64,000 nt of DNA, taken from assembly GCA_019058245.1 (NCBI GenBank), contig JAHPZJ010000013.1, forward strand, positions 406,289 through 470,288, in the 5' to 3' direction. Source of the DNA: Promethearchaeota archaeon. GTDB lineage: Archaea; Asgardarchaeota; Lokiarchaeia; Sigyniarchaeales; SOKP01. The notes beneath the pieces were generated by a model. That model searched no databases. It worked only from the letters and a program-made list of their open reading frames with translations, and was not told where the DNA came from. Position numbers and translations under genes: made by a program. Positions 17,621 through 35,908 of the stretch are shown one piece after another (within the stretch, counting starts at the first letter, position 1; the number at the start of each line of letters is the position of its first letter).

Positions 17621-18436
17621 TTAATATCGTGGATTTTCTTTATATCTATTAAATAAAACTTTTAATCGATCTTGAGGCATTCCAAGACGCCATAGTAACG
17701 ACATTAGTATCCATTTCCAAATAGTTCTGAAGATTCCATATTTTTCAAATCGACGAGTGGAATTATATATCCCGATGCGGTAGATACATGCAATCCCTTT
17801 ACCTCCACGCCAATTACTTATACTTTTAGGCAATACTCTTTTTGCAAACTTCATTAGACGTCGACCAAAATCGAAACCTTCACAAATCCACATTGGTGCG
17901 AATCCATTTAGAGCTTCAAAAACCCATTTCCTTACAAATATAGCATTATCTGCGGGATATGCTTTAAAAGTTTGAAATAGTATGTTTCCAACCCAACCAA
18001 ATGTGTAAACTGCCGTTCGCATAAAGCTATTTGGATTTGAATTATTATCCCATTTCCATTTCTTTGTAAAAGCTCCACCAAGTATTAAAGGATTTCTAAG
18101 ACGGCCAAAGAGCAAAAATAACGTACCAGGTCGAAGTTTTATATCTGCATGAAGAAATAAGAGAATATCAGATTTTGCAATCTCACCACCAAGATTTGAT
18201 TGTAGTACTCTTCCTCGAGGAGACTCAATTACGATATCTGCTAACTTTCTCGCGATTTCTTTTGTATTATCAGTAGATCCCCCATCACTTACAATAATTT
18301 CAATAGGAATGGAAAGACCAGAAGGAAATAGAGCAGCTCTTTTAACTGAAGCAATTGTATCAGCTATATAATTAGCTTCATTAAGAGTAATAATTATTAT
18401 ACTAATCTTTGGTGAAGTCTTGAACTGAATAGTTAT
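17621..18436 (-). CDS. GT2 glycosyltransferase (TIGR04283-like); start extended to a probable ATA codon
   Basis: Frame is open for 107 codons upstream of the listed ORF and encodes KISIIIITLNEA, IIVSDGGSTD, SPRGR and LLFLHAD. GGAGG SD lies 6 nt before ATA at 18436. Confidence 0.85.
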   Translation of the reverse strand: MTIQFKTSPKISIIIITLNEANYIADTIASVKRAALFPSGLSIPIEIIVSDGGSTDNTKEIARKLADIVIESPRGRVLQSNLGGEIAKSDILLFLHADIKLRPGTLFLLFGRLRNPLILGGAFTKKWKWDNNSNPNSFMRTAVYTFGWVGNILFQTFKAYPADNAIFVRKWVFEALNGFAPMWICEGFDFGRRLMKFAKRVLPKSISNWRGGKGIACIYRIGIYNSTRRFEKYGIFRTIWKWILMSLLWRLGMPQDRLKVLFNRYKENPRY

Positions 18437-18447
18437 AAAGATCCTCC

Positions 18448-19071
18448 CTAATCTGGTAATTCGAAACTAATTTTATTTGATAATTTAGAATTCTTAAGGT
18501 CATCGAGTACATCAATATCGGAAAGAGTTGGTAATAGAAAATATTTTATACCAAGCTTATTAATATCTGCTATAGTATCAGAAAATACGGAGGATGTACT
18601 CCACTTTTTATTTATAAACAATTCTTGATGTATTTCTTTAAGTCCCATCAAATAGTATCCTCCATCTTTTGCTGGTCCCAGTACAACATCATAATTTAGT
18701 AGTTGGTCAAATGCTTCATTAATAATCCTAGCAGTTAATTCCAAACAATCGCTTCCTATTATTACAGCTTTACGGTATCGTTGTAGCGTGATCCTAAAGG
18801 CTTGCAGCATCTTTTCTCCAAAATCAGAACCTTTTTGTAAAAATTTTATAAAGAATTCTTTTTCCCAAAGATCATTCTCATCGATATAATCCGAATAAAA
18901 TAATAAACGCGCACATGGAACTTCAAGTGAAATAGATCGTGTGTGTTCAATTAATACTTTATAAACAGTTAAAGCACTCTCTTCTCCAATATCTGCAGCT
19001 AAACGTGTTTTTACACATCCTATATTAGGATTTCTTACAAGGATTATTAAGCCTTTATCATTCATTTTCAT
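18448..19071 (-). CDS. TIGR04282/DUF2064-like nucleotidyl/glycosyltransferase
   Basis: VKTRLA, QKGSDFGEKM, IIGSDC, VLGPAKDGGYYLMG, LSDID; ATGA overlap with the radical SAM stop suggests start 19071. Confidence 0.9.
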   Translation of the reverse strand: MKMNDKGLIILVRNPNIGCVKTRLAADIGEESALTVYKVLIEHTRSISLEVPCARLLFYSDYIDENDLWEKEFFIKFLQKGSDFGEKMLQAFRITLQRYRKAVIIGSDCLELTARIINEAFDQLLNYDVVLGPAKDGGYYLMGLKEIHQELFINKKWSTSSVFSDTIADINKLGIKYFLLPTLSDIDVLDDLKNSKLSNKISFELPD

Positions 19072-20066
19072 ATAACTATTGTTGTGCAATTATTATTTAC
19101 TCTAACTAGATCTTTTGAGTTTGCTTTTTGCCACTCAAGGTTTATTTCTTCCCCACGACACCAAGGGCAATATTCATCATGATTATTTAATTTTCCTCTT
19201 ATTGCTCGCCTACTAGCGCAACCTCCTTGACATAAACAATCTGCGGCAACTGGAGGGATGGCTTGAGCCATTATAAATTGTTGAGTTTCAAAGATTTTTT
19301 CACCAAGCTCTAATAGGTCATTGATATCGGGAATGGGTTCAATAGCTTTATTATTTCCCCAATATACACAAGGGATTACTTGTCCTTTAGGATTAATTCG
19401 TATGCTTTTACGACCACAAGGAGAAAAAATCTCCCCCAGTCCTAGCGCGGCTCTTACAACAGGTTCAAAACAAGAGATGACCTTACCTTTGCTAAATAAT
19501 AGTCGAAATCCCTCCCAGAATTCCTTATAATTAAGCTGATAATCGTCTGTATTTACAGATTGAAAAACACTAACACGCAAGTTAACTCCATATGAACGGG
19601 CAAGATCTACCATCTGGTCCATCTTGTCGTAATTAACAGACATCATTGTAGTAAGTATAGTCAATTCAATACCTGCGTTATCGCATCGTTTAATAGCCCT
19701 ATTTACTAATTCCCAATTTCCTTTACCACGAAATTTATCTTGTTCTTGACTCGTAGGGAAATCAATGGAAACTTCAATATCATTGAAAAGTTCTAAATAT
19801 TTATCGGAAAGTCTACTTATAGTCAAACCGTTGGAGGCTAAACTGAGTCGCACATCTCGACAAGCTAAAAAGTTAAGAATTTCAAGGAATTCTGGATTTA
19901 ATATATTTTCTCCAGTACCCATCCCTATCGAACTAATAGGTATCGCTTTGCATAGCTTTTGAATTTGTTTTAAAGTAATATTAGAGATCTGCGTTTTATC
20001 ACGATAACAATGTGTACAATTTAAATCACAATTATTGGTTAAACCAATTCCAATTGAATATTTCAT
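19068..20066 (-). CDS. Radical SAM protein with C-terminal SPASM/twitch-like Cys cluster
   Basis: CDLNCTHC; C-terminal PCGRKS...PC...CLCQGGC...YC. Confidence 0.9.
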   Translation of the reverse strand: MKYSIGIGLTNNCDLNCTHCYRDKTQISNITLKQIQKLCKAIPISSIGMGTGENILNPEFLEILNFLACRDVRLSLASNGLTISRLSDKYLELFNDIEVSIDFPTSQEQDKFRGKGNWELVNRAIKRCDNAGIELTILTTMMSVNYDKMDQMVDLARSYGVNLRVSVFQSVNTDDYQLNYKEFWEGFRLLFSKGKVISCFEPVVRAALGLGEIFSPCGRKSIRINPKGQVIPCVYWGNNKAIEPIPDINDLLELGEKIFETQQFIMAQAIPPVAADCLCQGGCASRRAIRGKLNNHDEYCPWCRGEEINLEWQKANSKDLVRVNNNCTTIVI

Positions 20067-20106
20067 TTATTCCATCTCCATATATTTAAGATTAAATTAC
20101 CTCACT

Positions 20107-20928
20107 TTATTGACTAATACCTATTGCGATGAAATATACGATACTCGAGAAGAAATGGTTAAGTTGAAGTCGATTTTCTAGTTCCAACATCCAAGCATTA
20201 TACTCTTCTTCTGTGATTATTTTCTGATCTAATGCACCAGATGCAGCGTGTCTAATGGATTGAGTCAACGAGCTATTTTCATCTGTTGCAATTGAAACTA
20301 AAGGACAAATGTTAATATCCTTCAAGCCATTAGCATTGAGCAAACTAAATAATTGTCTACCACTCCAATTGTTCCCATCCTTATGATCAGTTCTCCAATG
20401 GAGTATTTTGCGCGTTACCTTGCGGTTTGGATGATCAACAGTTAGTGTCTCAAAATCCCAATCCATCAAGGCAATTTTTCCTCCGGATTTAACAGTGCGA
20501 ATTAATTCCTCTACAACTCTTAGAGGATCATTTACATGAAGCAATAATCTTGTAGCGAAAACACTATCGAAATTATTATCCTGACAAGGAAGATCTTCCG
20601 CATCTCCAACCTTAAATTGAATTAAATTAACTAAATTATCTTTACTTGCTTGTTCAAGAGCGAATGATATAATGCCTGGAGAATTATCGATCCCAGTTAT
20701 ACTTCCTCCCGGTTCAAGAAATGGTGCTATCAACCGAGATAATACTCCACTACCACATCCAACATCTAATAAATGTTCTCCAGGTTTTGGATTGAGTATA
20801 TCTCTGAATCTTAAATTGATTTGGACCTGATCTGGATATTTTGAGCGTTTTTCAATATATTCAGCCATTTTTTTTGCTGTTTCTGGCTTTTTATTTGATT
20901 CCTTAGACCATAAGCTTGTTGGAACCAT
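20107..20928 (-). CDS. Class I SAM-dependent methyltransferase (UbiE/PRK08317-like)
   Basis: LLDVGCGSG, GDAEDLP, FDSV, LLHVNDP, KSGG. Confidence 0.9.
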   Translation of the reverse strand: MVPTSLWSKESNKKPETAKKMAEYIEKRSKYPDQVQINLRFRDILNPKPGEHLLDVGCGSGVLSRLIAPFLEPGGSITGIDNSPGIISFALEQASKDNLVNLIQFKVGDAEDLPCQDNNFDSVFATRLLLHVNDPLRVVEELIRTVKSGGKIALMDWDFETLTVDHPNRKVTRKILHWRTDHKDGNNWSGRQLFSLLNANGLKDINICPLVSIATDENSSLTQSIRHAASGALDQKIITEEEYNAWMLELENRLQLNHFFSSIVYFIAIGISQ

Positions 20929-21167: not shown

Positions 21168-22007
21168 TTATTTTGATTCAAAGATTTTGCGAATTTTGTC
21201 AAACCTTTCATTTCTCGATAATCTATTGGCTATCGGGTTATGATCTCCATATAATCCCTTATGATATACTTGTCTGTGAGTTTGATAAAAAAGTCCTATA
21301 GTGAACCTATGTAAATTCCTAGCAGCAGTTAAAGCTTCTTCCATTGTTTTCGGTTCTTTACCAATGTATTCAATCTTATCCTTGAATTCCTCCCATTTGT
21401 GGTAGGGCATCGCAGGTTGCAAAATTTCGATAAAGGAAAATCCTTCATGCTCTATAGCTTTCACAAGAGTTTCCGTTAAATGTTTAATTTCACCAGAATA
21501 GCATCTTGCTACAAATGTTGCTCCTGCTTCAATAAGTAAAGAAATGGGATTAAAAGGAATCTCAAAACTTCCCATTGGGGTTGATGGTCCTTTCCAACCC
21601 TCCTGAGTTAAGGGAGAAAATTGACCTGTCGTGAGAGCATAAACTCCATTATTATGCAAGATCATAGTGATATCCATGTTACGTTTTGCTGCAAAGAGAG
21701 TATGAGCTAAACCTTCTCCTAAACCACTCCCATCACCAGAAAAAGTTATCACTTTTAAATTAGGATTAGAAATTTTGATCCCAGAAGCAGTGGTTATTTC
21801 TCTTCCATGTAATGAATAAATCCCGCTTAAATTAAAATAATCAAAAATTTTTGCATGACATCCAATTCCAGCGGTCATAATCATATTCTCTCGTTTAATA
21901 CCTTTTTGCTCTAGTATGGGAAGTGCATTTCTAATTGCTGTAAAAATCCCGAAATTACCGCATCCAGGACACCATGTAATTTCAGCATATGTTTTAAGAT
22001 CTTCCAT
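21168..22007 (-). CDS. korB: 2-oxoacid:ferredoxin oxidoreductase beta subunit
   Basis: WCPGCG, GIGC, HGR, GDG TPP motif, NNGVYALTTGQ. Confidence 0.9.
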   Translation of the reverse strand: MEDLKTYAEITWCPGCGNFGIFTAIRNALPILEQKGIKRENMIMTAGIGCHAKIFDYFNLSGIYSLHGREITTASGIKISNPNLKVITFSGDGSGLGEGLAHTLFAAKRNMDITMILHNNGVYALTTGQFSPLTQEGWKGPSTPMGSFEIPFNPISLLIEAGATFVARCYSGEIKHLTETLVKAIEHEGFSFIEILQPAMPYHKWEEFKDKIEYIGKEPKTMEEALTAARNLHRFTIGLFYQTHRQVYHKGLYGDHNPIANRLSRNERFDKIRKIFESK

Positions 22008-22008
22008 A

Positions 22009-23670
22009 TTATTTGAGCACCTCCTTTATTTGATTTGATAAATCTATAGGATCAAATGGACGACCATCATATTGTTTTATTGTATTTCTTATCTTTAATC
22101 CAGCTCTTTCGTTTAAAAGCTTAGTAAATTGACCAGTAGAACTTTGTTCAATAACAATATTATCATGATCTTTAAACTCTTCTATTTCCCATATAGGTAA
22201 AGGACTCAAATATATTGGGGCAATAGTAGTAGGATTTAATCTTCCATATTTAAGAGCCTCTAATACACTCATATAAGTAGAACCATAAGTGAATATGTTA
22301 GTAGGATTTTCACCTCGAATTATTTTAACAGTTTTTTGCCCTTTTAAATAATCTATAAGTGAATCTAACTTTTTATTTCTTTTATCATGCATAAATGAAA
22401 TCATCTTTGCATTTTCTGTAGTAATTCCTAATTCATCATGCTCATAACTGTTCCATTTTATTATCTTTTTAGATGGTGGAAATAACATGGGGGAAATTCC
22501 ATCATCAGTATCCAAATATCGTTTATATTCGCCCTCTTTATGTATTTTTGGCTCGGCCCACTTAGATTTTTCTAATTCAGCTTCTATTGTCATACTACTC
22601 TCTGAAAGATGTTTTTCAGTTAATAATATTCCTGGTGTCTGAAATTTCCATACTAGATCTAACATTTCGGCAGTAAGATAATATGCCTCTCTAATTGTAG
22701 TAGGAGAAGCAACTATTCTTAGAAAATCTCCATGAGCTGCAGTTAAAGCGAAAGCTAAATCTGCCTGTTCTGTATAAGTAGGCACCCCTGTTGCAGGACC
22801 TGGTCGCTGAGATAAAACAACTAATACAGGTGCTTCTGTCATACCTGCTAAAGAGAATCCTTCTACCATAAGAGCAAATCCCCCTCCACTCGTACCAACC
22901 ATGGCTCTTGCTCCTGTAAAACTTGAACCAATTGCCATATTAATGACTGCTATTTCACTTTCAGCATGAACTACTGCTAAACCAAAATTTTCAGCTTCCC
23001 TAGCGAGTGTGTGTAAGATTGAGGATGCGGGAGTCATAGGATAACCAAAATATACATCCAATCCTCCAGCTACAGCACCAAAACTAATTGCCTCATTTCC
23101 TGTAAGAATTGATCTTTTTTTATCTCCTCTTTCTAAGTAAAATTTCTTTCCACAAGCAGGATAAACAATATCATATATTGTATTTGCAAAGCTAATATTA
23201 TCTTCTATTCCTCTTGGATATTCCTCTTCAATCATTTGTTTCATTTCTTCTTTTTCGAATCCGATTGTTGCTGCTAATATTGCTATTGCCCCAACTCCAA
23301 ACATTAACTCTTTCATTGGATACTTTTCTGCTTCTGTTGTTAATGATATTCCTATGCCGTTATCAATTTCCTGTTCATCTAAATTAAAAATCATAATCCC
23401 ATTTTCAGCAATATCATTTTTGTGTATTTTATAACTTCGTTGATCAAAATTTACAACCAGATTAGCATTCATATATTGACTACTGATCCATCTAGGGCTT
23501 GTACTTACAACAGAAAAGTTATGTCCACCTCTTATTAAACTCATATAATCATCCATTTGAAACACATGCTGACCTATACTGGAGAATATATGTGCTGCCA
23601 CAGAACCCGCTTTCTTTACACCTTCACCAGCTTTGCCTCCAACTAAAAATGTAAAAACATCTGAATCCAT
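22009..23670 (-). CDS. korA: 2-oxoacid:ferredoxin oxidoreductase alpha subunit (gamma-alpha fusion)
   Basis: GGKAGEG, IRGGHN, YPMTPAS, ESEIA, TSGGG, QRPGPATGVPT. Confidence 0.9.
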   Translation of the reverse strand: MDSDVFTFLVGGKAGEGVKKAGSVAAHIFSSIGQHVFQMDDYMSLIRGGHNFSVVSTSPRWISSQYMNANLVVNFDQRSYKIHKNDIAENGIMIFNLDEQEIDNGIGISLTTEAEKYPMKELMFGVGAIAILAATIGFEKEEMKQMIEEEYPRGIEDNISFANTIYDIVYPACGKKFYLERGDKKRSILTGNEAISFGAVAGGLDVYFGYPMTPASSILHTLAREAENFGLAVVHAESEIAVINMAIGSSFTGARAMVGTSGGGFALMVEGFSLAGMTEAPVLVVLSQRPGPATGVPTYTEQADLAFALTAAHGDFLRIVASPTTIREAYYLTAEMLDLVWKFQTPGILLTEKHLSESSMTIEAELEKSKWAEPKIHKEGEYKRYLDTDDGISPMLFPPSKKIIKWNSYEHDELGITTENAKMISFMHDKRNKKLDSLIDYLKGQKTVKIIRGENPTNIFTYGSTYMSVLEALKYGRLNPTTIAPIYLSPLPIWEIEEFKDHDNIVIEQSSTGQFTKLLNERAGLKIRNTIKQYDGRPFDPIDLSNQIKEVLK

Positions 23671-23834: not shown

Positions 23835-24854
23835 TTAATCTATTATCTTTCTAATTTTTTTATATCTTTTGATATTTCTTCTAATTATTATAGGAAAATA
23901 ACATAACTCAAGAAAGAATAATAGTAAAAAAAATTGAATATATACTGAATAGACTATCCAGGAAAATATTAAAAGAAGAGACAATCCTTCAATAAATATA
24001 AGAATCCATATTAGGATTATTAATCTATGATAATATAACCCTCTGATTAGAACATCATTTGTAATTGTATTTTCACATGATCGACAGAGTCTATTATCGA
24101 ATCGTATTTTATTGCCACACTTTGGGCAAAAATATAAATCTTTTTTAATAAAATATAACGTTCCAATTAACGTAGAAAAGACTAAAATTGAAGAAATAAT
24201 TGTGGTATAAGATATAATGAATTTATTATAAGTATAGAGAAGTCTGATATTCCCAATCATAATATAATAATCCAATTCTGGATTATTTTCTGTAATATTA
24301 ATACAAAAGGCAATTTCACTTAGTTGTTTCTCTTCAAAAATTTCGGTTAAATCAATAGTTTGTTCAAGATCATATTCTTCCCAAGGGTGTTGTGTAATCT
24401 CAGACATGTTGAAGTTATCGATTATTTCTTCGTGGTTAGGTTTATTATTCCAAGTTATCTCAGAATAATTCAAATTTGATTCAATCAATATTAAATTTAA
24501 TTCAACATCTTCTACATCAGGACCATTAATATTATGTAAACTGTAAGAAGCAACAACAAGGTGAAGTGCTTCTGTTTCTTTTGGCAATATTGCAAGGTTA
24601 TAATGGATAAATACTTCACAGGAATTTCCAAATTCTGTGTTTTTGCTTGAAGGAAAAAAATAATTCACATCAGGATTGCTTTGGTCCACATGTGTTAAAC
24701 GGTCTACTTCTAATTCTCTGAGATATTTAGTAGTTATACCAATATTCCCACCAAATAAAGGAATAAAATTAATAATTAATAGAAAGAAAGATAGGATTGC
24801 TAAACTAATAAAAATTACTTTAGTTCTCAAATTCTTAATATATTGTGTTTTCAT
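23835..24854 (-). CDS. Membrane protein with extracellular domain (DNRLRE-like) and zinc ribbon; paralog of 24879-25907
   Basis: N-terminal TM, VDQSNPDVNY and ITWNNKP, second TM, CPKC...CRSC, two C-terminal TMs. Confidence 0.8.
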   Translation of the reverse strand: MKTQYIKNLRTKVIFISLAILSFFLLIINFIPLFGGNIGITTKYLRELEVDRLTHVDQSNPDVNYFFPSSKNTEFGNSCEVFIHYNLAILPKETEALHLVVASYSLHNINGPDVEDVELNLILIESNLNYSEITWNNKPNHEEIIDNFNMSEITQHPWEEYDLEQTIDLTEIFEEKQLSEIAFCINITENNPELDYYIMIGNIRLLYTYNKFIISYTTIISSILVFSTLIGTLYFIKKDLYFCPKCGNKIRFDNRLCRSCENTITNDVLIRGLYYHRLIILIWILIFIEGLSLLLIFSWIVYSVYIQFFLLLFFLELCYFPIIIRRNIKRYKKIRKIID

Positions 24855-24878
24855 TTTAATTCGATTTTACTTAGTATC

Positions 24879-25907
24879 TTAGTTTTTATAGTTTCTTACT
24901 TTTTTACGTATTTTTATCGAAAAGAAAATTATAGAGAAAATTAGTAAAGCTCCAACGATACAACCAATCTCCATAGCTCCAAAAAAAGGAAGGATGGAAT
25001 AAAAAATGTTAAAGGATGTGGTTATAAGAAGAAAAATTACCTCAAAAAAAGCAAATATCCATAATAAAATTATTAATATTTGATAGTACAAACTAGTTCT
25101 TAGCATTTCATGTTCAAAAGGTTTCTGGCATGATGAACACCATAATTCAGTAAAATTCCTCTTTGTTTTACAATTTGGACAATAATATATACCTTTTCTC
25201 AGATAAACTATTGTTCCAATTAACATAATAAAAATTATAATTGAAGAAATAATTGCTGTATAAGATATAAGAAATTGTTCATAACTATATAGAAGCTTGA
25301 TTCCGGATAGATAAACAATATCCTTCAATTCTTCATTATTTTCCGTAATATTAATACAAAAACTAATCTCTGTTTGTTGTCTTTCTTCAAAAATTTCTGT
25401 TAAATCAACGGTTTTTTCAAGATCATAATATTCTACAGTAAAATGATTCCTAATTGCAGAAGCATTTACAGTTTCGATTATTTCTTCATGCTTAGGTTTA
25501 TTATTCCAATTAATTTCGGAAGAATTCCAATTTGAGTCAACCAAAATTAAATTTATTTCAAAATCTTTAATATAAAACATATAAGAATAGGATTGAAAAC
25601 CATTAATCGTAAAATATAACTTTTTTGTTTCTTTTGGTAATGATTGAAGATTAAAATGGACAAAAAATTGACAAGAATTTCCAACAATAGTATTATACAT
25701 TAAATAATTATAATAGTTCATATCTGGATTACTTTGATTTACATATGCTACACGATCCCAGCCTAAATCTCTGGTATATTTAGTAGTTATACCTACATTC
25801 CCACTAAAGAAAGGAATAAAATTAATAATCAATAGAAAAGAAGATATGATCGCTAAACTAATAAAAATTACTTTGGTCCTCAAATTATTGATATTTTGTT
25901 TTTTCAT
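24879..25907 (-). CDS. Membrane protein with extracellular domain (DNRLRE-like) and zinc ribbon; paralog of 23835-24854
   Basis: Same architecture: YVNQSNPDMNY, INWNNKP, CPNC...CSSC. Confidence 0.8.
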   Translation of the reverse strand: MKKQNINNLRTKVIFISLAIISSFLLIINFIPFFSGNVGITTKYTRDLGWDRVAYVNQSNPDMNYYNYLMYNTIVGNSCQFFVHFNLQSLPKETKKLYFTINGFQSYSYMFYIKDFEINLILVDSNWNSSEINWNNKPKHEEIIETVNASAIRNHFTVEYYDLEKTVDLTEIFEERQQTEISFCINITENNEELKDIVYLSGIKLLYSYEQFLISYTAIISSIIIFIMLIGTIVYLRKGIYYCPNCKTKRNFTELWCSSCQKPFEHEMLRTSLYYQILIILLWIFAFFEVIFLLITTSFNIFYSILPFFGAMEIGCIVGALLIFSIIFFSIKIRKKVRNYKN

Positions 25908-25918
25908 CTTTATCCCTT

Positions 25919-27268
25919 TTAAATTAATTTATTTGTTTGATATTTATCAATAGAAATGATTGGTTCTAATTCAGGTAATTTTTTTTTTGGATTTTTTAAT
26001 GACTTTAATTCTGATTTAACATCATTTTTAATTTGGGATTTATTCTGGACTTTTGTTATATTTAATAGTTTCAATGTTCTTTTATAATACCTAATTGCTT
26101 TTTGCTTTAAATTTAAATTAACAAAGACTCTTGCCAAATTCCAATAATAGAGAAAATTATCTCTGTATAACTTTATTGCAGTTAAGAATTTATTTAATGC
26201 ATTTTTATAATCTTGTTTATAAAAACTTTTAATACCTTGATAGAATATATCTAAAGAATATCTTCTTATAATATTAGGAGAAAATAGCTTGAGATGATGT
26301 TTTTGAATATCTTGAGATAATTGCTCAATCTTTTTTACCATCTTATCTTTCTCAGTTTTAGAAGAAAGTAGTGTTTCAATCATACCCAAACCATATGATT
26401 CAATAGAAGCAAATATTATTTTCTGACTTCCTGGTATTAAAGGGGCTTTTATTAAAGCGTTTAGTAAAATTTCATGAAATTTATATCTAATTAGAATTTC
26501 TGGTAATTCTAAAATTTGAGAGCCATCAAAATCAGCGAAAAATTTAAAATTCTTCATTTCGTCTATAAAGATTTTAACAATTAGGGGAGAAATTATTAAT
26601 GAATCTTTAATCAATTTAAAATTTATTTTTCTATTATCATTTTTTATAAATTTAATTGTCTTTATAAGTAAATTATTTAAAAGATCTTCTTGTTCTTTTG
26701 TAATAAATAAATCTTTAAAATCTATTATCTTATTTATCAATAATTTTTTACGAATACACGTAAAACCTTGAAATATTTCAACGATATTACTCATTTCTGG
26801 CTTATTACACACAAATTCTACAGAAGGGATTGATTCTTTATTATAAAAACTTGTTTGAACTATATTTTCAAATCCAATTTTTTCTAAAATTTCCTGCAAC
26901 AATTGAGGAGGAAAGCAAAATTTATGTTCTAAACCTTCATGAGGAAGACCATATATCCAACTTAAAATATCCTTTTTTTTTTCATAATCTGAATTTAAAT
27001 ATGTGCGAAAAGCTTTTTCTAAATCAGGAGTCTCTAAGATCAATTTACCCTTGGGTTCTAAAACTCTAAAATATTCACTTATAGCATAAATGGATTGGTA
27101 TAATCCTAAATGCTCAATTAAATGAATTGCCTTTACTTCTTGGCAGGAAAAATCTTCAAACTCAAGATTTACTGCTGACATCTTTTTGTCAGCAATTAGA
27201 TCCTCATAAAGATCTATATTAATGTATTCCGGTTCAAATTGCTTCCCACAACCAATATTCAATTTCAT
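25919..27268 (-). CDS. Class I SAM methyltransferase domain fused to C-terminal TPR repeats
   Basis: KLNIGCG, HLIEHL, RVLEPKG, ETPDL; TPR-like YKNALNKFLTAIKL...YYWNLARVF...AIRYYKRTL. Confidence 0.82.
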   Translation of the reverse strand: MKLNIGCGKQFEPEYINIDLYEDLIADKKMSAVNLEFEDFSCQEVKAIHLIEHLGLYQSIYAISEYFRVLEPKGKLILETPDLEKAFRTYLNSDYEKKKDILSWIYGLPHEGLEHKFCFPPQLLQEILEKIGFENIVQTSFYNKESIPSVEFVCNKPEMSNIVEIFQGFTCIRKKLLINKIIDFKDLFITKEQEDLLNNLLIKTIKFIKNDNRKINFKLIKDSLIISPLIVKIFIDEMKNFKFFADFDGSQILELPEILIRYKFHEILLNALIKAPLIPGSQKIIFASIESYGLGMIETLLSSKTEKDKMVKKIEQLSQDIQKHHLKLFSPNIIRRYSLDIFYQGIKSFYKQDYKNALNKFLTAIKLYRDNFLYYWNLARVFVNLNLKQKAIRYYKRTLKLLNITKVQNKSQIKNDVKSELKSLKNPKKKLPELEPIISIDKYQTNKLI

Positions 27269-27525
27269 TTTTTATCCTTAAAATCTTTTATACTTATACT
27301 AGAATATTTTGTTCCGCGAGCGTATATGGGATCTGTGGTTTTTGAATATAAAATTAAAGTTACATTCCAAAAGAAAAATACAAAAATCGTGAGAATTACA
27401 ATCAACATTAAAGCAAGGATTAATGGATATCGATTTTTAAAAAAAAGAGTATTAGTAATTTCTTTACGTGATAAACCCAATTCTTTTCCAATCTTGTAAA
27501 GTTGTATAATATTTTTATGGATCAA
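27265..27525 (-). CDS. Small single-TM protein, candidate radical SAM substrate (copy 3)
   Basis: 86 aa, TTG start; KIGKELGLS, TM, PIYARGTKYSSI; stop overlaps the next start (ATGA). Confidence 0.82.
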   Translation of the reverse strand: MIHKNIIQLYKIGKELGLSRKEITNTLFFKNRYPLILALMLIVILTIFVFFFWNVTLILYSKTTDPIYARGTKYSSISIKDFKDKK

Positions 27526-27551
27526 ATTTAATCATCCATTTTTATCACTCA

Positions 27552-27821
27552 TCATTTAATTTTCTTTTTATCTTTAAAATCTTTCATACTAATACTAGAA
27601 TATAAAGTTCCACGAGCGTATATGGGATCTGTGGTTTTTGAATATAAAATTAAAGCTACATTCCAAAAGAAAAATGCAAAAATCGTGAGAATTACAATCA
27701 GCATTAAAGCAAGGATTAATGGATATCGATTTTTAAAAAAAAGAGTATTAGTAATTTCTTTACGTGATAAACCCAATTCTTTTCCAATCTTGCAAAGTTG
27801 TATAATATTTTTATATATCAA
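27552..27821 (-). CDS. Small single-TM protein, candidate radical SAM substrate (copy 2)
   Basis: 89 aa, TTG start; 80/86 aa identical to copy 3; PIYARGTLYSSI. Confidence 0.82.
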   Translation of the reverse strand: MIYKNIIQLCKIGKELGLSRKEITNTLFFKNRYPLILALMLIVILTIFAFFFWNVALILYSKTTDPIYARGTLYSSISMKDFKDKKKIK

Positions 27822-27823
27822 AT

Positions 27824-28114
27824 TTAAACGCCCCCTTTTGTATAATATATTAGTTTATTTTTATTTTTAAAATCTTTTATACCAATACTGGAATAATAAG
27901 TTCCTTGAGCATATACTGGTTCTTGAGATTTTGCATAAAAGATTAACATTATATTCCAAAAAACAAGTGCAAAAACCGAGAGAATTACAATCATTATTAA
28001 AACAATTACCAATGAATGTCGATTTTTAAAAAAAAGAGTTCTATTGATTTCTTTGTGTGATAATCCTAATTCTTTTCCAATCTTATACAATTGAACAATA
28101 TCTTTCAAAACCAA
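27824..28114 (-). CDS. Small single-TM protein, candidate radical SAM substrate (copy 1)
   Basis: 96 aa, TTG start; KIGKELGLS, TM, PVYAQGTYYSSI. Confidence 0.82.
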   Translation of the reverse strand: MVLKDIVQLYKIGKELGLSHKEINRTLFFKNRHSLVIVLIMIVILSVFALVFWNIMLIFYAKSQEPVYAQGTYYSSIGIKDFKNKNKLIYYTKGGV

Positions 28115-28133: not shown

Positions 28134-29258
28134 TCATTTCAATAAAAGTTTTTGATATAGGTATTTATAATTTGAAATTTTAGAATCAATCTTCCACCTA
28201 AATGGGAAAGATTTATTTTTAAATAATTCATTCTCAATTGCTCTTAAACAATATGGATTATCAGAACTATTTAAAGCTAACCTTGTACCTAAACATCCAG
28301 CTTTACATTTTTTAAACATCTTACATGTAGCACAATAATTTTTTAAGTCTATTTTTTCAGAATATTGAGCATATTTCAAATCAAATCTATAATTTATGAT
28401 ATTTGAAAGTGTAGTGGTTCTAATATTACCTTCAATAAAATCATCAGGTAAAGTTAAACACCCCTTAATATTACCATTGCTTTGAATTCCTAAAACAGAT
28501 TTACCTGCTTGACAACCAATCCATGGTTCCAATCCTAATTCTGGTAAAAAATTTGAAAAATATCCAAAACAATGAGCACCTATTAGGGGCAATTCTTTTA
28601 TTGAATACTTTTGAAGGCTTGATGCGATAAACATAGCTACTCCATAAAATTCTTTTCGAGAAATCACCAAATCTCTTGGAAATCTTCCAATCGGTATGGC
28701 TATTTGGATTTGCCAGGCAATTTTTCTATTAATTAATAAAGCACGAATTAGTTTCAATTCCTTAAAGTTGAGTTTACTAACTGTAGTTATAACACTAACC
28801 GGGATGTTTTCTTTTTGGAGTAGTTTTATTGATTCTAATACCTTATAATATGCTCCTTTAATCCCCCTTATATAGTCATGTGTTTCAGGAATTGCGCCAT
28901 CTAAACTCAAAGAAACACATTCTGGTTGTAATTCTTTTAGCTTAGTAAGGTGATTTTTTATCACTAAACCATTAGAAACAATAGTAAGTTTCATTTTTTG
29001 TTTTTTAATTTCTTGTGCGACTTCATACCAATCATCTCTTAAGAATGGTTCACCACCCATTAATGCAATCCCATCATATCCACAAGATCTTAAATCATTG
29101 ACTAATAATAATGCTTCTTCTGTACTGAGTTCATTAGAGCGAATTTTGCCGGCTGATGAGCCACAATGAATACATTTACTATTGCATTTTAATGTAAATT
29201 CCCATACAGCACATTTATGTTTGAAGAAATTGGATAATTGATAATGTAAATTTGACAT
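28134..29258 (-). CDS. Radical SAM/SPASM domain protein (peptide-maturase-like)
   Basis: AVWEFTLKCNSKCIHCGSSAG, GGEP, SLDG; SPASM GCQAG...IKGC...CATCKMFKKCKAGC...YC. Confidence 0.92.
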   Translation of the reverse strand: MSNLHYQLSNFFKHKCAVWEFTLKCNSKCIHCGSSAGKIRSNELSTEEALLLVNDLRSCGYDGIALMGGEPFLRDDWYEVAQEIKKQKMKLTIVSNGLVIKNHLTKLKELQPECVSLSLDGAIPETHDYIRGIKGAYYKVLESIKLLQKENIPVSVITTVSKLNFKELKLIRALLINRKIAWQIQIAIPIGRFPRDLVISRKEFYGVAMFIASSLQKYSIKELPLIGAHCFGYFSNFLPELGLEPWIGCQAGKSVLGIQSNGNIKGCLTLPDDFIEGNIRTTTLSNIINYRFDLKYAQYSEKIDLKNYCATCKMFKKCKAGCLGTRLALNSSDNPYCLRAIENELFKNKSFPFRWKIDSKISNYKYLYQKLLLK

Positions 29259-29439: not shown

Positions 29440-30561
29440 TTAAAATAAGATAAAATCACAAGAGGGACATTTCTTTCTATCTCCTTTTATAATTTTACTA
29501 CAATTTGGACAAATTTTTATTGAAGGTTTTTTGTTATTTTGTTCACTTTCGATTTGTGCTCTAATTGATAATGCCATTGGATCAACAGCTTGAATAATCT
29601 TAGGTTTTGTCCTTGCTTCTAACTCATGTAAATAATCTACAATATTTTTCTTTTGAACTTGAGTCTTTTTTGCAATAGAAGGAATTTTTCCTGCTTGTAC
29701 GTCATTCACATAACCACTATCAAGTTTTAGAATGTTAAAGCAATTGTGGCATCTGAACACGTTAGAGATTCCTATATTAGATGTTTTAGCCCATTGAGAC
29801 CAACATACCTTATGAGCAACGGTTTCACAGGAAGGACACCTCACTATACCTTCATTACCTTGCTGAAAGCAAATTGAACAAGTAACTGTTTCGTTTACTA
29901 TTTCAGGTTCATCTGCTAAATTAGTATAAAATGGTTGATTATCAGGTAAGATCATTCTTAATCGTTGCTTGATAAATGAAGGTTCTGATACATATTTTTT
30001 CTCTGAAAGATTAGTTAAAATGGGATTTAACTCTTTAAGTTTAGAAATTTCATGCAAACTCCCATTGCATAATTTTACTAGTCTGATTAATTTAGAATGC
30101 AATTCTGGATTAGGGTCTCCAACTCTTACGATATCAATAAAAAGAGGCATATCTTTTACAACTTTAATTAGTTCTTCTATTGGTGGAAGATATTCTGGAG
30201 GGATATTATAGGCTCCTTTATCTATTAAAATTATTAATCGAAATATTTTTTCTGAAATTTTTTTATATACCTCAATAATAAATGTTATTGCTAAGAATAT
30301 CCCCCCCGCAATATTTGCATTAGTAATGTGTCCAGCCAATGATTTTAATGTATCAAGAATAATATCTGGATTAAATGTAAAATGTTCCAAATAATTTGGT
30401 CCTTCATTTTTAAATACAATAAGATTAAATCGATCAGATGGATCAATACTTTGTTTATTTTTCATAAATTCTGATATTGAATTATAGACCTGACGTAATT
30501 TAATTATATTTGGAGTGAAACCATAAAAAATGAGACAATCTTCGCTTTTTGTGGATTCCAT
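29440..30561 (-). CDS. vWA-like domain + C4HC3 (PHD/RING-like) finger + C-terminal zinc ribbon
   Basis: DRFNLIVF, IAGGIFLA, RLIILID, IDIVRVG, LCNG; CSIC...CPSC-x4-H-x2-C...CHNC; CPNC...CPSC. Confidence 0.75.
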   Translation of the reverse strand: MESTKSEDCLIFYGFTPNIIKLRQVYNSISEFMKNKQSIDPSDRFNLIVFKNEGPNYLEHFTFNPDIILDTLKSLAGHITNANIAGGIFLAITFIIEVYKKISEKIFRLIILIDKGAYNIPPEYLPPIEELIKVVKDMPLFIDIVRVGDPNPELHSKLIRLVKLCNGSLHEISKLKELNPILTNLSEKKYVSEPSFIKQRLRMILPDNQPFYTNLADEPEIVNETVTCSICFQQGNEGIVRCPSCETVAHKVCWSQWAKTSNIGISNVFRCHNCFNILKLDSGYVNDVQAGKIPSIAKKTQVQKKNIVDYLHELEARTKPKIIQAVDPMALSIRAQIESEQNNKKPSIKICPNCSKIIKGDRKKCPSCDFILF

Positions 30562-30789
30562 TTTAGAATTAAAGATTTAAATAACAAATAAATATTGAAA
30601 TACTTAATACAAAAATCGTACAGGAATAATAAGTATATTATTGTTAATAACATTAAAGATTTAGGCAAAAATAATAAAAACTTTTAAAACAGCACTAACT
30701 AATAATATCTTTTAAATAATTGAAAAAAAAATTTGGAGTATTTCCATTTTCCTCCCATTTAAATATAACTATAATCAAATAAACAATAA

Positions 30790-31866
30790 TTAACGTTTTT
30801 TTTTCTTACTTTTCTTTTTTGAACTTTCAGGCTCTTCTTTCTTCGTTTCAATCATTGCCCTTACATCAGATGCGAATGGATCTTCAGTTTGTATGACTTG
30901 TGGTGTGCTCTGAGCTTCAATTTCTCGTAAATAATCAACTATATCTTTCTTTTTCATCTTATTTAATTCAGCAATTGTGGGAATTTTACCTGCTTGTACA
31001 TCATTAATATAATTCTTATCTAATTTTAAGATATTAAAACAATTGTGACAACGATATACATGTGGAATTCCAATATGAGAGGTTTGTGCCCATTGTGCCC
31101 AACATACTTCATGGGCAACTGTTTGACATGATGGACATCTTATGAGCCCTTCATTACCCTGTTGAAAGCAAATTGAACAAGTTGAAATATCAGTAACTCT
31201 CTCAGGTTCATCAGCTAAATTTATATAAAACATTTGATTTTCCTCTGGTATCCTACGAATTTCTTGCTTGCTAAACGCGGGTTGTATAATTTTTTTTTTA
31301 TATGAAAGTTCCATTAGTAGAGGATCTAACTCATCAATACTACTAATCTCATAGAATTCTCCTTTAGTTAAATTCACTAATTTATTCAACCTATTACGCT
31401 CTTCATAATCTGGTTGCCCTATATATATAACATCAATAAAAAACGGCATATCTTTAACTTTATTAATTAATTCTTCTAAAGCAGGAAGGTATTGGGATGG
31501 AATTGCATATGCACCATCATCTACTATGATTAAAAGACGAAAGATCTTCTCTGAGATTTTTTTATATACTTCTATTATAAATGTAGTTGCTACGAATACA
31601 CCACCAGCGATACTTGCTCTGGAAATATTTTTTTCTACTGATTTTAGCATTGATAAAACTAGGTTTGTGTCAAAAGCAAAATGATCCAAATAATTTGGAC
31701 CATCAGGAAGAAATAAAATCAAATTAAACCTGTCTGAAGGATCATTAGCTTGCTTTATTTTCATAAACTCTGAAATTGAATTATAAAGGTCTTTGAATTT
31801 TGTTAATTCTGGAGTTAATCCATAAAAAATCAAGCAATCTTCACTCTTGGAGACTTTAAGAGTCAT
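30790..31866 (-). CDS. vWA-like domain + C4HC3 finger, paralog of 29440-30561
   Basis: Collinear and highly similar to its neighbour; ends in a Lys-rich tail with no zinc ribbon. Confidence 0.75.
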   Translation of the reverse strand: MTLKVSKSEDCLIFYGLTPELTKFKDLYNSISEFMKIKQANDPSDRFNLILFLPDGPNYLDHFAFDTNLVLSMLKSVEKNISRASIAGGVFVATTFIIEVYKKISEKIFRLLIIVDDGAYAIPSQYLPALEELINKVKDMPFFIDVIYIGQPDYEERNRLNKLVNLTKGEFYEISSIDELDPLLMELSYKKKIIQPAFSKQEIRRIPEENQMFYINLADEPERVTDISTCSICFQQGNEGLIRCPSCQTVAHEVCWAQWAQTSHIGIPHVYRCHNCFNILKLDKNYINDVQAGKIPTIAELNKMKKKDIVDYLREIEAQSTPQVIQTEDPFASDVRAMIETKKEEPESSKKKSKKKKR

Positions 31867-32183: not shown

Positions 32184-32441
32184 ATGCAAATATACCGTTT
32201 AAAAATAAACAAGAATATCTGTATTGGATGTAATGACTGTGTCGTAAGCTGTCCCTTAAATTTCCAACAGTTAAAGGATAAAGGGTATTTAAATCCAGAA
32301 AATGCAGTGCTTTTAGTAAGAAATGGAGTGGCTTATGATATTTACGATGAAAGCAGAGATATAAATTGTGATGGATGTGGTGTATGTCTTAAAAACTGTC
32401 CTGTTTCTGCTATTGAATTACAATTAATTGAAGTTAAATGA
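32184..32441 (+). CDS. fwdG: 4Fe-4S ferredoxin, formylmethanofuran dehydrogenase subunit G-like
   Basis: Two CxxCxxCxxxCP motifs; first gene of the fwd cluster. Confidence 0.72.
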   Translation: MQIYRLKINKNICIGCNDCVVSCPLNFQQLKDKGYLNPENAVLLVRNGVAYDIYDESRDINCDGCGVCLKNCPVSAIELQLIEVK

Positions 32442-32451
32442 GGTATGAAAA

Positions 32452-33189
32452 ATGTCATTTCCTAAAATTTCAAGATCAATTAGTAAAGAACTTGAACATG
32501 TGAAAGTTCAATTTCTTACTGAAAGTATAGAACTTCTTTTGGATCGAACTAAATGTGTTGGGTGTGGTACTTGTGCTAGAGTTTGTCCAAAAGAGGCAAT
32601 TTCACGTGGTCCAGTAGCTGCTGCTCGTCGATTTCCTAATATGGAAGATATTATTCCAGAAATCTATGACCCGAAAAAGTGTGTTTTTTGTGGTACATGT
32701 GTTGTAATGTGCCCTTTTAGTGCTTTAAAGCTAAAAAAAGATGGGGAACTAATAGAATTAAACGATATACAAATTGTTAAAGAAAAAGTTGTCCCAAAAT
32801 TAGAATTTGAAGCTAAAAAGATAAAGGATATTGCAGGAATAGAAAGAATAGTCAAACCCTATGCTGACGGTGAAATAAGCATTGTTGATGAGGAATGTGC
32901 TGGTGGATGTGAAGCTTGTGCAGATGTATGCCCCAGTGGAGCTATAACTGTTCCTGAAAAATCGGATAAAGGATGGGAGACTGTTCCTAATGTTGTTGTT
33001 GATCCTGAAAAATGCATATTTTGTGGATCTTGTGATAATGCTTGTCCAACTGGAGCTATCAAATTAAAAATAACTGATATTAAAACTTCAGGTGAATTTA
33101 GTGAAATGTTTTGGGTACCACTTTTAGAAAGAATAAAAACACTAAGGTGGAGTGAAAAAAAGGAGGAAAAAACTGATGAGAATAAATAA
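32452..33189 (+). CDS. fwdF: Polyferredoxin, formylmethanofuran dehydrogenase subunit F-like
   Basis: Four ferredoxin motifs; fwd context. Confidence 0.78.
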   Translation: MSFPKISRSISKELEHVKVQFLTESIELLLDRTKCVGCGTCARVCPKEAISRGPVAAARRFPNMEDIIPEIYDPKKCVFCGTCVVMCPFSALKLKKDGELIELNDIQIVKEKVVPKLEFEAKKIKDIAGIERIVKPYADGEISIVDEECAGGCEACADVCPSGAITVPEKSDKGWETVPNVVVDPEKCIFCGSCDNACPTGAIKLKITDIKTSGEFSEMFWVPLLERIKTLRWSEKKEEKTDENK

Positions 33190-33571
33190 TTTAATTTTAA
33201 TAACTTGCCGGACAATTAATCAAGGCGTAGCACTTGAAGGAGGAAAAAATACAATTGAGAATGTTAGAGCTGCTGGTATTTGTGCCTTTGATAAAGAGGA
33301 TTTCAAAAAATTAGACTGTCCTGTTGGAACACCTGTTAAAGTAATTACAGAACACGGAGAAGTTGTAGTATATTCAACAATTTCAGAAGAAGGTCCCCAT
33401 CCAGGAATTATTTTCATACCGATGGGACCATGGGCAAATCAAGTTGTAAATCCGGATTCTCAATCATGTGGTACACCTACGTATAAAGGGATGAAAGCAA
33501 GCGTAGAACCTTTACCAAATGGAAAAGTGTTAAATGCCGTAAATTTAATCAAACTCTTAAAGGTGGCATAA
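33176..33571 (+). CDS. fwdD: Formylmethanofuran dehydrogenase subunit D
   Basis: LITCRTINQG, IFIPMGPWAN, GTPTYKG; ATG at 33176 follows GGAGG. Confidence 0.9.
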   Translation: MRINNLILITCRTINQGVALEGGKNTIENVRAAGICAFDKEDFKKLDCPVGTPVKVITEHGEVVVYSTISEEGPHPGIIFIPMGPWANQVVNPDSQSCGTPTYKGMKASVEPLPNGKVLNAVNLIKLLKVA

Positions 33572-33573
33572 AT

Positions 33574-34902
33574 ATGGCCGATAAGAATATAAGAACTGTA
33601 ACAGATGTAATTTGTCCTTTTTGTGGGACTCTCTGTGATGATTTGGAAGTAGATATTGATAATAAAGAAGAAAAAATAGTAGAAGTAAGAAATGGTTGTC
33701 AAATCGGAACTAAAAAATATTTTTCTTCTAATCCAAGTGTACATCGGTATGATAAACCACTTATTAAAGATAATGGATCTTATAAAGCAATATCATGGGA
33801 TGAAGCCATAGATAAGGCAGCAGATATATTAATAAAAGCTAAAAGACCCTTACTATATGGATTCTCAAGTACAGAATGTGACGCTCAAGGAAAAGGAGTA
33901 GAATTAGCTGAACTATTAGGGGGAATTTTAGACAATACAGCATCAGTTTGTCATGGTCCCTCCTTACTTGCGATTCAAGATGTTGGAGCTCCAACTTCTA
34001 CTTTAGGGGAATACAAAAATCGAGCGGATTTAGTAGTCTTTTGGGGAAGTAATCCTGTTCATGCTCATCCAAGACATCTTGGAAGATATAGTGATTTTAT
34101 ACGTGGATATTTTAGAAAAGACGGCTCAAATGACAGGTTTATTGTAGTTGTAGATCCAAGAAATACTCATACAGCTCAACTTGCAGATATGTATATACAA
34201 TTAAATCCTAGTGAAGACTATGAACTGATAAATGCAATTAGGGCAATGTTAAGAGGGGTTGAATTAGAGGGGGATGAAATCTCAGGAGTTCCAAAAAAGA
34301 TAATTATAGAATTAGTAAATGCTTTAAAATCTTGTAATTATGGTGTAATCTTTTTCGGTATGGGTTTAACTCAAACTTTATCTCATCATAGAAATATAGA
34401 TGCTGCTATTTGTTTAGTGAGGGAATTGAATGATCATACTAAATTTTTATTAACTCCTATGCGTGGACATTATAATGTTGCGGGGGCAAATCAAGTGTTT
34501 ACATGGCAAACGGGATATTCCTATTCAATAGATTTTTCTAGAGGCTATCCTCGGTATAATCCTGGAGAATTTTCTTCTGTTGATTTATTAATGAGGGATG
34601 AGATTGATGCTTCTTTGATTGTAGCTTCTGATCCTGCCAGTAATTTTCCAGCGGCAGCCGTGAAAAATATGTTTAAATACCCTTTGATTTCTATCGAGCC
34701 CCATCATACGCCCACTTCAGTTAATGCGGATATCATACTTCCTCCGGCTATAGCAGGAATAGAATGTGAAGGAACGGCGTATCGTATGGATAGTGTTCCT
34801 TTAAGATTACGAAAAGTTAAGGATGCTCCTGGAGATTGTTTAACAGATAAAGAAATTTTAGAACGATTAGTAGAAGCTGTAAAAAAGAAAAAAGGGGAAT
34901 AA
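33574..34902 (+). CDS. fwdB: Formylmethanofuran dehydrogenase subunit B
   Basis: CPFCGTLCDD, ASVCHGPS, KNRADL, HPRH, MRGHYNV, YRMD. Confidence 0.95.
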   Translation: MADKNIRTVTDVICPFCGTLCDDLEVDIDNKEEKIVEVRNGCQIGTKKYFSSNPSVHRYDKPLIKDNGSYKAISWDEAIDKAADILIKAKRPLLYGFSSTECDAQGKGVELAELLGGILDNTASVCHGPSLLAIQDVGAPTSTLGEYKNRADLVVFWGSNPVHAHPRHLGRYSDFIRGYFRKDGSNDRFIVVVDPRNTHTAQLADMYIQLNPSEDYELINAIRAMLRGVELEGDEISGVPKKIIIELVNALKSCNYGVIFFGMGLTQTLSHHRNIDAAICLVRELNDHTKFLLTPMRGHYNVAGANQVFTWQTGYSYSIDFSRGYPRYNPGEFSSVDLLMRDEIDASLIVASDPASNFPAAAVKNMFKYPLISIEPHHTPTSVNADIILPPAIAGIECEGTAYRMDSVPLRLRKVKDAPGDCLTDKEILERLVEAVKKKKGE

Positions 34903-34906
34903 AATA

Positions 34907-35758
34907 ATGGTAGATATCAAATTAAAATTGAAAAAAGCACCAGAATTTCCTTTAGAAGCTGATGTTATAACACCAGATCAATTTGCTGGAAAGTCAGCAG
35001 CACAAATTAAAAAATTAATAGTGTATCATGGGAATGAAGAAAAAACTTTAGGAGAATTCTTTGATGTCACTGGAAATGGAAGTGAAGTTAATGATATTAA
35101 AATTATAATCGATGGAGATCTCTCAAATGTAAAACGTATTGGAGAAAAAATGACTGGTGGCGAAATTATTGTAAATGGGAATGTTGGAATGCATGTAGGG
35201 AGTAAAATGTCGGGAGGAAAAATATTAGTAAATGGAAATGCTGATGATTGGGCTGGTGCTATGTTAAATGGTGGAGAATTAGAAATAACTGGGAATGCTG
35301 GTAATTATGTGGGGGCTGCATACAGAGGATATTGGAAAGGAATGCAAAATGGAGTAATAAAAGTGAAAGGGAAAATCGGAAATGAAGCTTTATCATGGGT
35401 TACTGGATCAAAACCCGGAAATAGATTTCCAACTCTTTTATGTGGCAGTGCTGGTTCATTTTTAGGTGTTCATAGTCACGGAGGCACAATTATAGTAGAA
35501 GGTGATTGTGATAGATGCATTGGAGCAGATCAAGTAAGGGGGACAATTGTTGTCAAAGGTAAGATAAATAGAATTCTTCCTTCCTTTAAAAAAATCGGTG
35601 AAGTAAAAGAAATTGAATTAATGAATGGAGAAAAAATAAAGGGTAATTTTATTGAATATAGCGGAGATCACTCTGTAGAAAAAAATCATTCTAAAATTGA
35701 TAAAAAAACTGGAAATATTTCTAATAGCTCAAACGGTAGATTATATGTAGCCGCTTAA
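34907..35758 (+). CDS. fwdC: Formylmethanofuran dehydrogenase subunit C
   Basis: PLEADVITPD, GXGXG beta-helix repeats, AYRG. Confidence 0.93.
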   Translation: MVDIKLKLKKAPEFPLEADVITPDQFAGKSAAQIKKLIVYHGNEEKTLGEFFDVTGNGSEVNDIKIIIDGDLSNVKRIGEKMTGGEIIVNGNVGMHVGSKMSGGKILVNGNADDWAGAMLNGGELEITGNAGNYVGAAYRGYWKGMQNGVIKVKGKIGNEALSWVTGSKPGNRFPTLLCGSAGSFLGVHSHGGTIIVEGDCDRCIGADQVRGTIVVKGKINRILPSFKKIGEVKEIELMNGEKIKGNFIEYSGDHSVEKNHSKIDKKTGNISNSSNGRLYVAA

Positions 35759-35908
35759 TTTATCTTTTTATCTTATATATCAAACTTTTTTGACTTATCT
35801 ATCTTTTAATTTTAGGAGAATTATTTTCTTACTTCATTTTATTTATAGAAAACATTAAATATTATTTAAAAAAATAAAATTCAATTTAATTAGTTTATAT
35901 TTTTAACT

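Follow-up and report, generated by a model that had tools for sequence, protein, structure and literature searches.

Three tandem peptide genes (27265-28114, minus strand) were analysed in a 64,000-nucleotide stretch of DNA (the window) from a Promethearchaeota archaeon of the Lokiarchaeia (contig JAHPZJ010000013.1, positions 406,289 to 470,288). They sit between the gene for a radical S-adenosylmethionine (rSAM)/SPASM enzyme and that for a methyltransferase-TPR protein. From sequence comparison we read them, with moderate confidence, as membrane-anchored precursors of a spliceotide-like pathway with a serine-variant site and predicted splicing chemistry. The basis of this reading is the linkage of the genes in a cassette, the conservation of the core motif, the homology of its X-Y-S with the X-Y-G of related peptides and the divergence of paralogues at X. 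That the spliced products act as protease inhibitors of differing specificity is suggested tentatively, by analogy.

Spliceotides are defined by an enzyme-dependent reaction in which a tyramine equivalent is lost and an alpha-keto-beta-amide is formed. The known tyramine spliceases comprise the type I systems PlpX-PlpY-PlpA and PcpXYA (Pleurocapsa) and the binary systems RhaX/RhaA, RcsX and RasX (Rheinheimera) (PMC11414181, PMC11626197, PMC11002830). Archaeal spliceotide clusters have been predicted bioinformatically, as cited in PMC11626197; a literature search turned up no Asgard pathway for a peptide made by the ribosome and modified after translation (RiPP) of this layout. A splicease survey is described as having selected for YG motifs close to the enzyme (PMC10849128), and a Tyr-Ser family would therefore have been missed. 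New here are the Tyr-Ser form seen in Lokiarchaeia, the recognition that the variable residue corresponds to the splice X, and the test on paralogues. The original prediction, made from the letters of the window, did not recognise that its x-Y74-S corresponds in alignment to the X-Y-G splice motif found in homologues.

Peptide genes and topology

The cassette comprises the following features, with residues numbered as in copy 3.

28134-29258, minus strand: radical SAM/SPASM enzyme, 374 aa, Pfam PF04055 and PF13186
27824-28114, minus strand: precursor copy 1, 96 aa, TTG start; X73 is Tyr (codon 27896-27898), site Y-Y-S
27552-27821, minus strand: precursor copy 2, 89 aa, TTG start; X73 is Leu (codon 27603-27605), site L-Y-S
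27265-27525, minus strand: precursor copy 3, 86 aa, TTG start; X73 is Lys (codon 27307-27309), site K-Y-S
27436-27504, minus strand: leader of copy 3 (residues 8-30), helix-turn-helix with G-x-x-L-G-L; copy 2 27732-27800, copy 1 28025-28093
27346-27426, minus strand: single transmembrane (TM) helix of copy 3 (about residues 34-60); copy 2 27642-27722, copy 1 27935-28015
27280-27324, minus strand: conserved core of copy 3 (residues 68-82); copy 2 27576-27620, copy 1 27869-27913
25919-27268, minus strand: class I methyltransferase with helical/TPR fusion, 449 aa, core member of the cassette

The open reading frames (ORFs) and a gap-free alignment bear out the original description of three TTG-started peptides sharing a leader, a hydrophobic stretch with FWN and a tyrosine core. 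The TTG starts coincide with residue 1 of ATG-started 86-aa homologues, the C-terminus of copy 1 is ten residues longer than in most homologues, and the stop of copy 3 overlaps the start of the methyltransferase-TPR gene. The peptides are real genes, since synonymous changes dominate at invariant sites across close homologues, and they are present once in the source genome, as one array. Two plus-strand ORFs overlapping them (27239-27499 and 27622-27870) were rejected as antisense shadows. A promoter and terminator scan gave chance-level matches to bacterial-type signals and was uninformative. An in-frame T8-A5 run (minus strand, 27436-27447 in copy 3) is found at the leader end in all three copies; it may be a slippage or termination signal, or reflect AT bias only.

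Copies 2 and 3 differ, as had been reported, at 6 of 86 residues (positions 3, 10, 49, 56, 73 and 79), and at 14 of 258 nucleotides; the residue x of GTxY is Tyr, Leu and Lys in copies 1, 2 and 3. These two copies are sisters, adjoining single-copy Leu relatives in a tree built without the X column, and the Leu of copy 2 is the state of the single-copy loci. The nucleotide changes that had been noted at x are present (codons 72-73 read ACT TTA in copy 2 and ACA AAA in copy 3), but their clustering is marginal: 3 of the 14 changes fall within 3 nt (P about 0.03, with the interval chosen post hoc), and wider intervals gave P values of 0.06-0.34. The special status of X comes from the family data given below, not from this clustering alone.

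The topology prediction called for originally gave a single TM helix. By the Kyte-Doolittle scale one segment passes, with a 19-residue mean of 3.0-3.3 at about residues 34-53. In the AlphaFold model (predicted local distance difference test, pLDDT, 83) the leader forms two helices, a single long helix spans residues 32-63, and core and tail are unstructured. In the family alignment the hydrophobicity of the TM helix is kept although its sequence is variable. Five Lys/Arg residues precede the helix and two to four follow it, a weak charge bias from which we infer that a TM-anchored product is most likely N-in/C-out, with the core outward. No Pfam or NCBIfam family matches the peptides or their multicore homologues, a Foldseek search with the peptide model gave no match, and ESM Atlas returned only low-score FtsX-like matches, below the lead threshold. 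An archaeal class III (pilin) signal peptide was rejected, no [KR][GA] site being seen by inspection ahead of the hydrophobic stretch.

Conservation of the core

The core follows the motif Y68-x-x-G-x-X73-Y74-S75-[ST]-[IV]-x-x-K-D-F, in which X73-Y74-S75 is the predicted modification site. Both tyrosines singled out by the original prediction are conserved in homologues: in 111 Lokiarchaeia copies Y68 was kept in 110, G71 in 110, Y74 in 111, S75 in 109, D81 in 105 and F82 in 108 (variability of 0.07, 0.07, 0.0, 0.13, 0.35 and 0.2 bits, respectively). Y68 and Y74 being near-invariant, the core is conserved and not, as had been proposed, diversifying; with the leader, also expected to be conserved, it is the most conserved part of the peptide by per-site bits, and the TM and linker regions are the most variable. 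In distant homologues no column other than Y68 and Y74 is invariant; the distance between the two is nearly fixed, and a Gly lies within it. Tyr74 is kept in 164/164 copies. The third residue after Y68 is highly variable (S/A/R/T/Q/E/P).

The residue after Tyr74 is G in 38, A in 14 and N in one of the 53 copies from other Asgard families; it is S in 109 and G in two of the Lokiarchaeia copies. Single operons mix YG with YS (L021, L022) or YG with YA (L137-L146). An exhaustive profile search recovered leader-sharing homologues with x-Y-G at Y74, some of them TM-less, with up to six tandem cores. Since these homologues carry X-Y-G at Tyr74, the variable X occupies the position homologous to the splicease X. 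The Ser codon (27301-27303 in the window) is TCN in 109/109 copies and never AGY, which fits a Gly-Ala-Ser path rather than a single step.

Distribution and linkage of the cassette

Close homologues of the peptides numbered 118, and peptides of this one family were found in 55/161 Lokiarchaeia genomes, with one to four copies each. Leaving out the window itself, the rSAM gene was present in 37/42 Lokiarchaeia loci and the methyltransferase gene in 38/42, all but one of the absences falling at contig ends. At least four gene orders were seen among the Lokiarchaeia loci, for example rSAM-P-MT, P-MT-rSAM-P and rSAM-MT-X-P (P, peptide; MT, methyltransferase). With a wider profile the peptides were also detected in other Asgard families; in 20 such loci the rSAM gene was present in 20/20 and the methyltransferase gene in 18/20, both gaps being contig ends. 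The peptides thus have the general make-up of a RiPP: they are short, their leader and core are conserved, and in genome after genome they lie beside genes for modifying enzymes.

One locus (L045:3040-3273) holds a solitary peptide gene immediately followed by a DNRLRE membrane gene. Neither enzyme is present there; the isolate carries a complete cassette at another place (L076). Four further copies (P0153, P0171, P0183 and L067:11442-11640) consist of leader or leader and TM helix without a core, and may be defective copies, or separate helices that act as activators in the manner of the Y proteins. Three archaeal, Thermoplasmatales-like loci (L078:3236-7371, L083:1432-6803 and L082:2747-5867) have two paralogous enzymes of the clade with B12-dependent radical SAM genes nearby; their precursors are soluble and TM-less, with up to six tandem x-YG/x-YA cores.

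The radical SAM/SPASM enzyme

The enzyme has CxxxCxxC at residues 25/29/32 and seven further invariant Cys within 249-337. Its best NCBIfam families are TIGR04103 (198 bits against a cut-off of 725), TIGR03913 (161 against 592) and TIGR04133 (155 against 425). The first of these presumably corresponds to InterPro entry IPR026482. PlpX is a member of that entry (PMC11002830). In quick trees, with support given as the Shimodaira-Hasegawa-like approximate likelihood-ratio test (SH-aLRT) only and no characterised splicease sequence included, the archaeal enzymes form one clade (SH-aLRT 95-99) that joins TIGR04103, TIGR03913 and TIGR04133 to the exclusion of MftC and TIGR04053 (SH-aLRT 97-99). Residues common to the archaeal enzymes and the joined families include a W-Q-I-Q strand and W246. 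By sequence, the enzyme probably belongs with the spliceases (PlpX-type), as part of a separate archaeal clade and with scores below the family cut-offs.

Annotated bacterial members of the clade have XYG neighbours (LYG in Nostoc, LYG/PYG in Azospirillum, an EYG lipoprotein in Parabacteroides). The nearest rSAM enzymes outside Lokiarchaeia, one of them named Thermoplasmatales, adjoin leader-sharing multicore peptides with repeated x-YG. The enzyme residues fixed in the YS clade relative to the YG clades are V94, I199 and a C-terminal extension, none of them interpretable. No RiPP recognition element (RRE) was seen in the enzyme, nor an RRE gene in the cassette, by Pfam/NCBIfam scans and locus comparison, and a solved-structure search returned only distant rSAM enzymes and no splicease structure. 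Complex predictions of enzyme and peptide scored 0.68, 0.00 and 0.01 and were used neither for nor against the reading.

Variation at X among paralogues

Among the Lokiarchaeia copies X was L in 53, K in 16, R in 13, F in 11, Y in 8 and another residue in 10, and in single-copy loci it was mostly L (11/16). The emphasis originally placed on x was justified for paralogues within an array, but not family-wide, where X (2.4 bits) is no more variable than many TM and linker sites (up to 3.5 bits). Same-array pairs of at least 55% identity differed at X in 21/21 cases. They include four pairs of 90-94% identity from separate lineages (window L/K, L037 Y/K, L058 L/Y, L160 L/F); position 70, as variable as X across the family, differed in 0/4 of them. 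Between genomes, pairs above 85% identity differed at X in 14/42.

The classes of residue were also unevenly combined. Within arrays 11/86 pairs had X of the same class (27 expected), two basic X were found in 0/36 arrays, and aliphatic (L), aromatic and basic X occurred together in 12/19 arrays of at least three copies. Arrays of other Asgard families had 5/52 same-class pairs (16 expected), none of them double basic. On the tree built without the X column at least 12 changes were required for the basic state and likewise at least 12 for the aromatic state, and the set of L, aromatic and basic recurs in separate lineages. At X, 32 non-synonymous and six synonymous changes were counted, against zero and six at the neighbouring Tyr74. 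X is thus kept different between paralogues. New mutation and X-sparing gene conversion would give the same pattern, and both imply selection for different X.

Proposed pathway

The N-terminal leader helix would bind or activate the adjacent rSAM/SPASM enzyme; binary spliceases use a leader helix in this way (PMC11414181). Tyr74 would be excised, X73 becoming a ketoamide. The methyltransferase-TPR protein might add a second modification, speculatively at the invariant Tyr68, and the TM helix would tether the product, probably core-out. Core-out anchoring would place the modification in the cytoplasm before insertion. X would be the side chain beside the electrophilic ketone, so that Leu, Tyr/Phe and Lys/Arg copies could become elastase/chymotrypsin-like and trypsin-like inhibitors. 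Beside a ketone, side chains of the aliphatic, aromatic and basic kinds would be expected to suit elastase/chymotrypsin-like and trypsin-like proteases. Were X to set protease specificity, duplicated copies would be driven apart at X and the recurring triad would be explained. For Leu/Met spliceotides, inhibition of elastase, chymotrypsin and cathepsin B depends on the peptide being spliced (PMC11626197).

Several points weigh against this pathway. Characterised splice sites are X-Y-G throughout the literature consulted (PMC9811515, PMC11414181), and the window copies (Y-Y-S, L-Y-S, K-Y-S) lack this spliceotide motif. The second invariant tyrosine, Y68, and the obligatory methyltransferase form no part of known splicing. 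The enzyme scores far below the cut-offs of TIGR04103, TIGR03913 and TIGR04133 and is only 28-34% identical to annotated bacterial members of the clade, and no characterised family contains the archaeal clade. No peptidase, exporter or transporter is conserved in the cassette across the 42 Lokiarchaeia loci. An outward core would demand that a cytoplasmic, oxygen-sensitive enzyme act ahead of insertion. Finally, the array statistics include related, non-independent genomes, so that the permutation P values overstate the significance, and the peptide tree rests on 71 columns only.

Alternative explanations

The alternative that survives best, somewhat improbable in our judgement, keeps the substrate-enzyme pair and changes the chemistry: a ring or modification using both tyrosines (Tyr68-Tyr74, or Tyr to backbone near G71), finished by the methyltransferase, with X exposed and tuning target binding. 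It would account for Y68 and Y74 as the sole invariant columns among distant homologues, at nearly fixed spacing around a Gly, and for their retention in multicore repeats. Some sister loci hold two paralogous enzymes and a B12-dependent rSAM enzyme, and rSAM clades often switch chemistry. It leaves unexplained, however, the restriction to G/A/S after Tyr74 and the diversified residue just before it, and the nearest named families of the enzyme are XYG-associated.

Another possibility is that the peptides serve as surface tags or as small regulators in the membrane. The Ser variant would then go unspliced, or the enzyme would act on different proteins and be activated by the leader, and variation at X would tune a protein-protein contact. 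This would fit the lack of Gly at +1 and of a protease or exporter, the L045 locus, where a peptide is kept beside a DNRLRE protein without either enzyme, and the finding that leader helices can serve as activators (PMC11414181). We regard it as unlikely: the three-gene linkage is tight through rearrangements and across Asgard families, Tyr74 has no exception among the copies, the L045 genome holds the full cassette at L076, and in L021/L022 a single enzyme goes with both YG and YS copies.

Radical cross-linking of the tyrosines was part of the original prediction, and radical SAM chemistry on tyrosine is indeed likely, but the three-residue cyclophanes named there (triceptides, at Y-A-R/Q and Y-S-S) are improbable. 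Triceptide systems likewise pair an rSAM/SPASM enzyme with short precursors containing aromatic residues; aromatic-x-x motifs are present here, and Y-S-[ST] is conserved. Their enzymes are of another subfamily: against the cyclophane synthase families TIGR04269, TIGR04261 and TIGR04496, which we take to be the triceptide maturases FxsB, GrrM and XyeB, the window enzyme gave 19.6 bits, 23.9 bits and no match (at most 24 bits), and against the WgkB-type family only 121 bits. No aromatic-x-x register is conserved at Y68, its third following residue being variable, and X73 would lie outside both rings. In favour of triceptides, a Trp-Pro-Arg cross-linker, WprB, acts on a similar-looking triplet (PMC11851443).

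That the differences at X are neutral noise after recent duplication, or that a mutagenic system, for instance a diversity-generating retroelement, produced them, is very improbable. In its favour, the clustering within the window alone is marginal and X also varies between genomes; against it, all 21 paralogue pairs differ, the alphabet is restricted, the excess of non-synonymous changes at X stands beside none at Tyr74, and a retroelement target was rejected because the X codon changes are not adenine-specific and no reverse transcriptase (PF00078) match was found in the 76%-complete genome.

Comparison with known systems

The cassette resembles spliceotide systems in its rSAM/SPASM enzyme, probably of the same broad clade, the lack of a separate RRE (as in the binary type), the helical leader, the C-terminal core with X-Tyr-small, and several paralogous precursors per cluster with X varying. 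The Lokiarchaeia system differs in that X-Y-S replaces X-Y-G, leader and core are separated by a TM helix, another invariant Tyr lies six residues upstream, a methyltransferase-TPR partner is obligatory, the host is archaeal and the enzyme is divergent (identity and family scores as above). As the X-Y-G motif is lacking and the family cut-offs are missed, the system is not filed as a member of the spliceotides, though it is like the binary system.

Two bacterial systems have enzymes of the same clade. In the TIGR04133 rSAM/lipoprotein system of Bacteroidales the partner is membrane-anchored and has an EYG motif. The TIGR03913 GDL-motif/DUF1843 systems have tandem paralogue arrays, some with a non-Gly +1 residue (YA, YM). 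The precursors of both are unrelated in sequence to the Lokiarchaeia peptides, with the Tyr site N-terminal and not behind a TM helix. Bacterial DUF1843 triplets beside TIGR03913-like enzymes mix YG with YA or YM (L089:1650-4420, L090:1525-3922), and in the Aureibacter DUF1843 cluster a class I methyltransferase adjoins the enzyme.

The archaeal YG-type cassettes, of other Asgard families and of the Thermoplasmatales-like multicore type, have homologous leader, core and enzyme (and in Asgard the methyltransferase) and the same choice of L, aromatic or basic at X. They differ in having Gly or Ala, not Ser, at +1 and longer N-termini, or in being TM-less with tandem cores.

Neighbouring genes

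The methyltransferase model (pLDDT 90) matches only generic class I methyltransferases in structure and gives no substrate clue. Downstream of the cassette lies the following accessory feature.

23835-25907, minus strand: two DNRLRE/CBM96-like Zn-ribbon membrane proteins, co-oriented with the cassette

The two are paralogous, with the layout TM / DNRLRE (CBM96-like) / TM / Zn-ribbon. Their family (F4) occurs in 12/42 loci plus the window and is absent from the second peptide clade and other Asgard loci; the DNRLRE proteins were accordingly rejected as core members, being limited to the sub-clade of loci of the window. Upstream of the rSAM gene, tandem paralogues with a Prok-RING-like finger (29440-31866) are kept as neighbours in 12 loci and missing in others. 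In the sub-clade of the window the cassette is flanked by a 2-oxoacid:ferredoxin oxidoreductase pair (21168-23670) and a formylmethanofuran dehydrogenase operon (32184-36724). The cassette is patchy in the genus (29/53 genomes) and stands at other sites in the second clade. A methyltransferase, a distant radical SAM protein and a TIGR04282 glycosyltransferase (above its cut-off) at 17621-20928 form an arsenosugar-type cassette unrelated to the peptide system.

Implications

If the peptides are spliced, X-Tyr-Ser would be the first splice site without Gly, of use for introducing beta-amino acids into proteins; the precursors would be a membrane-anchored substrate class and the enzyme would widen splicing beyond Tyr-Gly. 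It would also be a rare case of sequence evolution alone pointing at a functional residue. The specific prediction is a change of -135 Da at residue 74 together with X-dependent protease selectivity. If the peptides are not spliced, they would represent a radical chemistry on two tyrosines that is conserved among Asgard archaea and has not been described before. The fullest form of the proposal, which the sequences make possible and which we advance with reserve, is that Lokiarchaeia display a small panel of membrane-bound, methylated, X-Tyr-Ser-spliced ketoamides with aliphatic, aromatic and basic X, evolved repeatedly by gene duplication with change at X alone, as a cell-surface or secreted shield; this would place a protease shield in archaeal relatives of eukaryotes.

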